This document shows, one piece after another, positions 14,399 to 14,515 of a stretch of DNA of 32,000 nucleotides. Under the pieces are notes generated by a model. It saw only the letters and a list, made by a program, of their open reading frames with translations, was not told the origin of the DNA and did not search any database. The stretch is from Schaalia meyeri. Its GTDB lineage: Bacteria > Actinomycetota > Actinomycetes > Actinomycetales > Actinomycetaceae. Made by a program: the position numbers and the translations under genes. The DNA is taken from positions 60,001-92,000 of the forward strand of contig NZ_FNLK01000006.1 in NCBI RefSeq assembly GCF_900105015.1, read 5' to 3'. Position 1 is the stretch's first letter; each line of letters begins with the position of its first letter.

Positions 14399-14515
14399 TG
14401 CGTTTCTGGATAGGAAGCGTGTTGCTGGATAGGTTATGCGCTCGTGGATAGGTTATTAACCTATCCAGAAGCTCGTAACCTATCCACGAAGCCGTTTCCT
14501 ATCCAGGTGTCTGTT
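14399..14515. repeat. Convergent array of seven TGGATAGG(AA/TT)-type 10-11-mers with 19-bp phasing around a perfect 23-bp palindrome
   Basis: The direct copies start at 14399 (TGATAGGAAG), 14417 (TGGATAGGAAG), 14436 and 14455 (TGGATAGGTTA). The inverted copies are at 14467-14477 and 14486-14496 (TAACCTATCCA) and 14506-14515 (TTCCTATCCA). The centre is TGGATAGGTTA-T-TAACCTATCCA (14455-14477). Confidence 0.9.

Follow-up and report, generated by a model that had tools for sequence, protein, structure and literature searches.

A 19-bp-phased dyad array of Schaalia meyeri belongs to a dispersed intergenic repeat family and is a putative protein-docking element

The array and its locus

The 32,000-nucleotide stretch of the Schaalia meyeri genome analysed here (contig NZ_FNLK01000006.1, positions 60,001 to 92,000; hereafter the window, with positions counted from its first letter) contains an intergenic array of short sites that are arranged in two head-to-head arms with a regular phasing of 19 bp. 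The array represents a single copy of an intergenic repeat that is dispersed in oral Schaalia/Pauljensenia (the 'Actinomyces' odontolyticus/meyeri group), a family that is not described in the literature searched and for which the name dyad iteron element is proposed. To the left of the array lies a toxin/immunity island of the type VII secretion system (T7SS) type with TNT toxins (8.1-13 kb), followed by a decayed IS256-family transposase. To the right, ~850 bp without a convincing open reading frame (ORF) precede the genes for a DUF1540 protein, a TetR protein and a tRNA-Gln. The G+C content of the window is ~67% but is lower at 8-15 kb. Across 7.7 kb the window is 98.8% identical to CP012072.1, which we take to be Schaalia (Actinomyces) meyeri W712, and the DUF1540 protein (91 aa, 15362-15637) is encoded identically there. 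The parts of the array and the insertion sequence (IS) adjoining it are as follows.

14404 to 14508, no strand: canonical dyad element of 105 bp with three 14-bp sites per arm (3+3) in 19-bp phasing, head-to-head around T14456
14404 to 14417, + strand: left outer site TTCTGGATAGGAAG, an outer-type variant in which an AAG end replaces TTA
14423 to 14436, + strand: left middle site TGCTGGATAGGTTA
14442 to 14455, + strand: left inner site TCGTGGATAGGTTA
14456, no strand: central base of the dyad, a single T
14457 to 14470, - strand: right inner site, reading TTCTGGATAGGTTA on the - strand
14476 to 14489, - strand: right middle site, reading TCGTGGATAGGTTA on the - strand
14495 to 14508, - strand: right outer site, reading ACCTGGATAGGAAA on the - strand, outer-type variant
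14391 to 14403, + strand: remnant ATAGGAAGTGCGT of a fourth left unit, cut by the end of the IS and taken for a first copy in the earlier note on this DNA
14509 to 14592, - strand: probably further units of the right arm in decayed form, such as TTTC..TCCGTGTG, CCTGTCC and TTTCC...CCGCATG, recognised by eye and as a direct repeat
14593 to 14607, - strand: distal degenerate site TTTCCTAATCCAGAT with a 1-bp insertion, intact in other S. meyeri strains
13267 to 14390, - strand: decayed IS256-family (Mutator-type) IS with frameshifts, a ~200-bp internal deletion and a truncated 3' end, outside the repeat family

Exact copies of the 8-mer TGGATAGG start on the + strand at 14407, 14426 and 14445, and the inverted copies CCTATCCA (- strand) start at 14460, 14479 and 14498 and end at 14467, 14486 and 14505. 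The earlier note, made from the letters alone, had described a dyad array of seven sites; the array is real and all the features described were found, at main coordinates that had been set ~10 nt too high. Thus, the left copies placed at 14399, 14417, 14436 and 14455 start at 14389 (a degenerate TGATAGG), 14407, 14426 and 14445, the inverted copies said to end at 14477, 14496 and 14515 end at the positions given above, and a further degenerate copy, TTCCTAATCCA, placed at 14594-14604, occupies 14595-14605. The phasing noted there is exact, since GATAGG starts at 14390, 14409, 14428 and 14447. The two inner copies do form a perfect palindrome, TGGATAGGTTA-T-TAACCTATCCA, at 14445-14467 with its centre at T14456, and the symmetry of the variants was likewise borne out, with the inner two site pairs ending in GGTTA and the outer pair in GGAAG (left) and GGAAA (right). 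In a repeat search, the arms (14406-14455 and 14457-14506, 50 nt each) are 82% complementary, and Tandem Repeats Finder (TRF) reports a period of 19 in both. The exact 8-mer occurs six times in the window, every time inside the array; in dinucleotide shuffles of the 32 kb it occurs 0.29 +/- 0.54 times (maximum 2), and none of 100 shuffles reaches six.

The right arm varies between strains. Two S. meyeri strains (L192 and L199; sampled loci and contigs are cited by L numbers) carry one additional intact 19-bp unit in this arm. The counterpart of the distal degenerate site in these strains scores 19.7 on a position weight matrix (PWM) of the family, and the alignment reads CCT-ATCC there against CCTAATCC in the window. 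The decayed right-arm units and the distal site suggest that maintenance is confined to the central 3+3 module.

The adjoining insertion sequence

The pseudogene beside the array encodes a Mutator-type transposase (Pfam Transposase_mut, E = 1e-37). An intact relative of the element, 1.41 kb in length, is present at L252:456-1869, and in blastn its positions 2-421 align to window 14389-13965 and its positions 622-1333 to 13976-13267. As position 2 of the intact IS aligns to 14389, the terminus of the IS lies at 14390. The supposed copy TGATAGG consists of the IS terminal ...CACTG joined to ATAGGAAG, so that the fourth left copy of the earlier note is a unit cut at 14390/14391 by the IS end and not a degenerate site.

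With a pseudogene of this kind abutting the array and related IS copies adjoining other arrays, the array could be thought of as a terminal or subterminal repeat of the IS256-family element, or as two such ends abutted. This is scarcely credible, as the inverted repeats of the intact IS, GAGTAGTGTCCCGCATAGTGGTGTAA and GAGTCCTGTGGAGTGGTGTAATCG, bear no relation to the array sites, the end of the IS cuts through an array unit at 14390, and ~190 arrays have no IS nearby. Furthermore, the distance between IS and array varies, with related copies separated from other arrays by 1 bp (inside an arm), 60 bp and 250 bp and one lying 3.7 kb off. In the metagenome loci described below, three of the four related IS copies are situated within 250 bp of an array (p = 0.005); no IS256 element was found in the genome loci. 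The repeated occurrence of IS copies near arrays indicates that the arrays are insertion hot spots rather than IS termini, and repetitive extragenic palindromic (REP) sequences are likewise preferred targets of IS insertion (PMC1525189).

About 230 bp past the truncated end of the IS, ATAGGAAACGGTTTGCC at 13033-13049 looks like part of an array unit (cf. ATAGGAAGTGCGTTTC at 14391), either by chance or because a piece of the interrupted left arm may have been left there.

Occurrence and copy number of the family

The family was sampled twice. A scan of one genome per species with the pattern GGATAGG-N11-13-GGATAGG-N11-13-GGATAGG returned at least 119 stretches, including at least ~45 dyad arrays. 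Among the matches listed, every dyad (+...-) array in 19-bp phase belongs to an Actinomyces, Schaalia or Pauljensenia record, and the matches from other phyla are one-directional, microsatellite-like repeats. The same matches include at least seven arrays in Actinomyces sp. ICM47 and at least five in HPA0247, and the other carriers among them are S. odontolytica, A. bouchesdurhonensis, several metagenome-assembled genomes and two apparently mislabelled assemblies. The second, independent sample came from a metagenome scan with the central 21-mer only, which gave 120 loci with 131 centres. In these relatives the motif recurs as an array, which is therefore neither unique nor unconserved, as a fossil in the sense of the earlier note would be.

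Canonical arrays are found in L032, L055, L098 (titled Sanguibacter keddieii 250_SKED) and L112 (titled Xylanimonas cellulosilytica 352_XCEL). The flanks of L032 and L098 are ~87-99% identical to Actinomyces/Schaalia loci, and the 250_SKED record, at least, is probably mislabelled.

Arrays other than those that triggered the selection of a locus occur about once per 25-40 kb of sampled DNA, which as a rough estimate corresponds to tens of copies per 2-2.4-Mb genome. The flanks of separate copies are unrelated, so that the 105-bp array itself is the repeated unit. Six S. meyeri contigs from Logan (L193-L198) end inside the array or at most ~170 bp to its right (window 14479-14671), and this ending of short-read contigs at the array suggests repeat-induced assembly breaks.

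The direct repeats in 19-bp phase are similar to P1 and F iterons and to parC repeats, and the array is located beside a low-GC variable island. Hence, the array could belong to a plasmid or integrated element and serve there for replication, as iterons bound by an initiator, or for partition or transfer (clt/oriT); these functions had also been proposed in the earlier note. We regard this as very improbable. The estimated tens of copies are chromosomal and lie between housekeeping genes in many species, and no rep, par or tra genes are present in the window or beside other copies. In addition, blastn of positions 14300-14700 gave no match among the 72,556 plasmids of PLSDB or the 50,697 phages of INPHARED. 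The arrays carried by five GC-rich contigs of IMG/VR are no exception, as these 'viral' contigs are homologous to chromosomal loci.

At gathering thresholds, Rfam recognises only tRNA and tmRNA in the window. For the array region (E <= 10) and 16 related loci it returns sub-threshold hairpin artefacts of the miRNA-precursor kind on the array and otherwise tRNA and tmRNA. Literature searches for the motif strings retrieved only unrelated papers, such as primer lists, and neither Actinomyces nor Schaalia appears in two surveys of REPs.

Anatomy and variation of the elements

According to a PWM built on 268 sites, the repeated unit consists of a 14-bp asymmetric site, AT[G/C][C/T]GGATAGGTTA, and ~5 weakly constrained bases. 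An arm usually comprises three units (range 2-6), and the two arms meet head-to-head at one central base. The 105-bp 3+3 form is the commonest (28 of 48 genome arrays and 63 of 131 metagenome arrays), and the other lengths, 86, 124, 143 or 162 bp, differ from it by whole 19-bp steps. Among the 131 arrays selected by their centre, the 3+3 arrangement is followed by 2+3 (n = 24), 3+4 (n = 18), 2+2 (n = 6) and 3+5 (n = 4), and a 1+1 arrangement was found in none. Plain dyads make up 133 of 150 site clusters, and neither a substantial solo arm nor arms split by genes were seen in these clusters, which were drawn from ~1.15 Mb of sampled loci. At L308:1275-2039, about six dyad arrays stand in direct tandem within 765 bp, resembling a cluster of bacterial interspersed mosaic elements (BIME).

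The sites differ according to their position in the arm. Across the family, outer sites often end in TTG or AAR and middle sites in TTA, and one of the inner sites reads GGATAGC in 22 of 28 canonical elements. This G-to-C change gives the element an intrinsic polarity and occurs in either orientation. The element ends follow the consensus A[C/T]GC-GGATAGG after a weak GCGCNY, and carry neither GTAG nor CGTC. At the centre, [ATSCGGATAGG]-TTATTAA-[CCTATCCGSAT], inverted elements of ~11 bp surround 7 bp, an arrangement that matches the core site of a tyrosine recombinase in form only.

The position-specific variants group the elements into sub-families, and a paralogous pair in ICM47 is 86% identical at columns that are otherwise near random. 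Sub-families and this close pair show that entire elements were duplicated into new positions. Adjacent units of one arm often have identical spacers, and the length of the array differs between S. meyeri strains by exactly one 19-bp unit; together, these observations point to ongoing slippage of whole units.

Placement and neighbouring genes

In neither sample does an array lie inside a called gene. Both samples combined, 48 arrays are located between convergent, 53 between tandem and 10 between divergent genes, with a strong excess of convergent over divergent gaps (p = 5e-7), and the distribution of the metagenome arrays differs from that of background intergenic regions of the same loci (p = 1e-8). 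This placement at convergent and 3' ends rules out a classical operator role and matches the placement of REPs.

Three known kinds of binding or promoter site were considered and rejected. The half-site TAGGTTA of a DtxR/IdeR iron box is shared by the arrays and at one locus arrays lie near dps and hemH, but the spacing of the half-sites is off by 2 bp and ~40% of the arrays occupy convergent gaps, which have no promoter. The DnaA box TTATCCACA is resembled by CCTATCCAC, but the family as a whole does not conserve the CAC part. Inward-facing -10-like promoters (TAGGTT) found no support in a promoter scan.

The neighbouring genes are housekeeping genes, such as ksgA, hemH, dps, murB and those for tRNA synthetases, ribosomal protein L9 and penicillin-binding proteins. 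The earlier note had asked whether the motif recurs next to a particular gene, and across the ~1.15 Mb of loci sampled none accompanies the arrays consistently. No recombinase, rve-type or Mu-type transposase gene lies beside them, and the ~220 genes near arrays do not include a REP-associated tyrosine transposase (RAYT; IS200/IS605-type Y1). In the window itself, no gene evidently encodes a binding protein, in agreement with the earlier note.

The arrays share intergenic 'repeat islands' with at least four other families that resemble miniature inverted-repeat transposable elements (MITEs). One of these, M1, is a repeat of ~125 bp that is AT-richer, has the terminal inverted repeats CCCCAAATTTCGCACGTAATTCCCC...GGGGAATTACGTGCGAAATTTGGGG and often lies 30-250 bp from an array (L054:4939-5066, 5338-5459 and 5718-5839; also in L029, L032, L061, L096, L112 and L117). 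The repeats M2 (~75 bp), M3 (~88 bp) and M4 (~74 bp) occur in the same intergenic regions, and no Rfam entry matches any of M1-M4.

Conservation of sites and absence of covariation

The question of whether selection acts on the sites or on the pairing of the arms was addressed in both samples. In the metagenome sample, in which the middle and outer cores had played no part in the selection, these cores read GGATAGG in 247 of 256 cases, and the information content of the spacer columns is 0.04-0.5 bits. At orthologous loci compared across species, 953 of 1050 site positions are identical against 203 of 255 spacer positions (p = 3e-6).

Pairing between the arms gives a different picture. In the 28 canonical genomic elements, mirrored positions pair in 79.5% of cases compared to 80.2% when the right arms are shuffled among elements, and the spacer centres are mostly unpaired. 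The 64 non-redundant metagenomic elements show the same, with a pairing of 0.765 within elements compared to 0.770 +/- 0.006 between elements, and their spacers pair at 0.449 compared to 0.507 +/- 0.015, which is below all 1000 permutations. Arm covariation is thus absent from two independent samples, and, with spacers pairing below chance, the conserved sites alone account for the dyad symmetry. Long perfect palindromes are, if anything, avoided. The apical stem is moreover broken by the GGATAGC variant of the inner site, and the asymmetric centre is oriented without regard to flanking transcription. The earlier argument that conserved sites, variable spacers and strict phasing favour a DNA-binding protein over an RNA hairpin is upheld at the level of the family, as the covariation result was negative twice and the sites are far more conserved than the spacers.

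A structural role has to be weighed at this point, in which the array would act as a transcribed hairpin or a DNA cruciform and serve as a bidirectional terminator or as a stabiliser of mRNA 3' ends, as has been proposed for REPs. It would explain the strong enrichment at convergent gaps and 3' ends. Furthermore, the window copy folds as single-stranded DNA at -35 kcal/mol (z = -9), and the spurious miRNA-precursor matches in Rfam are typical of long hairpins. We nevertheless consider such a role unlikely, given the missing covariation, the spacers that pair below chance, the apical-stem mismatch in 22 of 28 elements and the lack of an orientation bias. The 7-mer core never varies and nothing compensates, which means that sequence is conserved and not pairing, and no terminator with a T-run is predicted on the array.

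Mobility and cassettes between arrays

Target-site duplications (TSDs) of 3-9 nt were sought at all offsets around 48 genomic and 96 non-redundant metagenomic arrays, and none exceeded the shuffled-flank controls. No autonomous or gene-containing version with these arms was found in the sampled loci. Most copies look old and persist at orthologous loci across species. Two apparent empty sites (L014 compared with L099, and L097 with L064) turned out to be block indels of 300-600 bp, and the indels seen are either such larger blocks or single 19-bp units.

These results bear on the view that the element is a selfish, non-autonomous transposon of the MITE or foldback kind, with arms that are the binding sites of a DDE transposase (of the Tn7, Mu, Tn402 or IS21 kind) acting in trans. 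Inverted arms built of ~19-bp sites do resemble the arrayed ends of such elements, namely the 19-bp repeats of Tn402/Tn5090, the TnsB sites of Tn7 and the L1-3/R1-3 sites of Mu, which also number 3+3. The family is multi-copy, intergenic and confined to one lineage, falls into sub-families with one close paralogous pair, and shares its intergenic regions with four ordinary MITE-like families. On balance this view is unlikely: apart from the lack of a TSD, of a split version, of a substantial solo arm and of an adjoining rve or Mu-type transposase in the sampled loci, the outer ends, within 105 bp of each other, would be too close for synapsis without extreme bending, and old orthologous copies keep their sites while their spacers drift, unlike dead MITEs. 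For similar reasons, namely the unrelated flanks of the copies, the missing TSD and the lack of a split version with genes inside, the idea of two abutted element ends in the earlier note does not hold.

At a few loci, pairs of arrays flank accessory cassettes (L043:2069-3559, L207/L250/L264, L216:4544-6338 and L014:3309-5091). The cassette of L043 encodes an orphan DarT1-associated NADAR antitoxin, that of L207/L250/L264 a two-gene module read by eye as a HEPN-MNT toxin-antitoxin pair, that of L216 an IS3 element and that of L014 a DUF4230 gene. A gene for the binding protein was sought between paired arrays, and none of the candidates (DUF4230, NADAR, HEPN-MNT, IS3, dps and hemH) is a consistent DNA-binding partner.

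Such pairs raise the possibility of a site for site-specific recombination or landing, with a centre of the tyrosine-recombinase type (~11-7-11 bp), accessory outer units and cassette exchange as at attC and pdif. The inverted elements around the 7-bp TTATTAA, the cassettes and the position of the window copy at the border of a strain-variable island (TNT toxins here, HamA and a helicase in L191) would all be in line with it. Nonetheless, it appears distinctly improbable, as the L043 cassette is flanked by two near-identical copies of the entire array and not by reciprocal hybrids, no recombinase gene is linked to the arrays in the sampled loci, and most arrays stand alone between housekeeping genes. 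The three HEPN-MNT cases, moreover, share a single orthologous locus and are not independent, which also speaks against a mobile HEPN-MNT cassette.

The island to the left of the window copy (8150-13000) is a polymorphic toxin island of the T7SS type with small WXG-like ORFs and a G+C content below that of the surrounding DNA. It encodes a 613-aa protein (8753-10594) that combines a T7SS_signal domain with a TNT (NAD+ glycohydrolase) domain, an Imm61-like immunity protein (10581-11108) and a second TNT fragment (11807-12439) accompanied by duplicated immunity-like ORFs. In the same slot, an S. meyeri contig (L191:440-3433) carries HamA and a DEAD-box helicase in place of the TNT toxins, which looks like a Hachiman defence system. 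As the content of the slot differs between strains, the array and the IS remnant border a variable toxin/defence island. On the other side of the array, the ~750 bp from the decayed units to the DUF1540 gene (14613-15361) match nothing in Rfam and contain no ORF with a coding-like composition.

A putative multi-site docking platform

The pattern of conservation argues for reading the array as a REP/BIME-like interspersed element that probably forms a multi-site docking platform on duplex DNA for a trans-acting protein. A sequence-specific protein encoded elsewhere in the genome would dock on the double-stranded array with one protomer or DNA-binding domain per site, that is, six per canonical element. 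As the phasing of 19 bp amounts to ~1.8 helical turns, the bound protomers would spiral round the helix. By analogy with RAYTs and REPs, the same protein probably maintains the family and originally spread it. The length of an array would shift by slippage of whole 19-bp units, and in the window copy an IS256-family element has entered the fourth left unit and later decayed. The family, its architecture, the conservation of its sites, the missing covariation, the placement, the lack of a TSD and the IS insertion are observed; the binding itself, the identity of the protein and the effect of binding are inferred.

Several points weigh against this platform. Among the genes near arrays none was identified as encoding the binding protein, nor is any gene consistently linked to them, and a clean pair of filled and empty sites was not found. 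The stable single-stranded fold of the window copy and the convergent-end enrichment would also fit a structural or transcript-level (terminator) role, and the strong conservation of the cores could partly reflect sample selection or gene conversion rather than binding.

A more tentative proposal, which we hold to be rather unlikely, is that the family constitutes a host-level system of Schaalia and not selfish DNA, in which a protein bound to the 3+3 sites, mainly between convergent genes, forms barriers or the arrays act as landing pads for cassettes. Such a barrier could be a roadblock for termination, or a buffer for supercoils or between replication and transcription; to our knowledge, canonical terminators are scarce in Actinomycetota. 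If true, Actinomycetota would have a system of a new kind for organising the chromosome or for recombination.

REPs, BIMEs and MITEs are usually read as hairpins or as dead transposon ends. A family built wholly of phased, individually conserved sites, with spacers that avoid complementarity and without insertion scars, offers a clean case of a dispersed repeat that is apparently kept for protein binding on duplex DNA. Finding the binding protein would distinguish upkeep by the host (termination, topology or cassette exchange) from a domesticated mobilising enzyme. In practical terms, the arrays break short-read assemblies of Schaalia, attract ISs and mark the borders of variable toxin/defence islands, which makes them relevant when the genomes of this common oral bacterium of humans are annotated and its strains typed.

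Comparison with known systems

The closest resemblance is to REPs, BIMEs and REPINs. Like these, the elements are short, non-coding dyad repeats that are intergenic, biased toward 3' ends, without TSD, grouped in mosaic clusters, kept at orthologous loci and targeted by ISs; REPs reach tens to hundreds of copies and the present family probably tens. REPs are thought to be recognised by a single trans-acting protein, and their definition includes a GTAG (or CGTC) tetranucleotide tag at one end (PMC3733652). The dyad iteron elements lack this tag, and their unit is a 19-bp non-palindromic iteron instead of a 20-40-bp stem-loop, without covariation between the arms and with spacers that avoid complementarity. 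Furthermore, no RAYT or other partner gene was found among the ~220 genes near arrays, and REPs, BIMEs and REPINs are known from Proteobacteria, whereas the host here is a high-GC actinobacterium.

Bacterial MITEs, such as Correia elements and the M1-M4 repeats, are likewise ~100 bp long, non-coding, multi-copy and lineage-specific, with inverted ends and sub-families. The present family differs in having no TSD, and no parent IS with matching ends was found in the ~1.15 Mb of loci. Its whole body is made of phased sites and not of terminal inverted repeats around an unrelated core, and the sites of old copies are intact.

The ends of Tn402/Tn5090, Tn7, Mu and IS21 are similar in form only, with repeated sites of ~19-22 bp that are direct within an end and inverted between ends. 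Their ends are kilobases apart, terminate in 5'-TG...CA-3' and are flanked by TSDs of 4-8 bp, whereas the arms described here are 1 bp apart, lack TG...CA termini and TSDs, and have no transposase between them. The Foldback (FB) transposons of eukaryotes also possess inverted arms made of short tandem sub-repeats in variable copy number. Their arms extend over hundreds of base pairs to kilobases and are accompanied by TSDs, and the resemblance is again one of form only.

The 19-bp iterons of P1 and F and the parC centromeres are likewise built of direct repeats in phase (19-20 bp), in each of which a conserved core is joined to a variable spacer. Such repeats are bound cooperatively, one protein per repeat. 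They occur once per replicon beside rep or par genes, in contrast to the many chromosomal loci without such genes found here. The attC and pdif sites are imperfect dyads as well (60-140 bp) and flank accessory cassettes, and the centre of the present element looks like a recombinase core. However, attC conserves structure and occurs in cassette arrays by an integrase gene, whereas here it is the sequence that is conserved, most arrays are solitary and no recombinase is linked to them.

The family falls in the known class of interspersed intergenic repeats, yet it departs from REPs in stem-loop and GTAG tag, from MITEs in TSDs, from iterons in genomic context and from transposons in the make-up of their ends.

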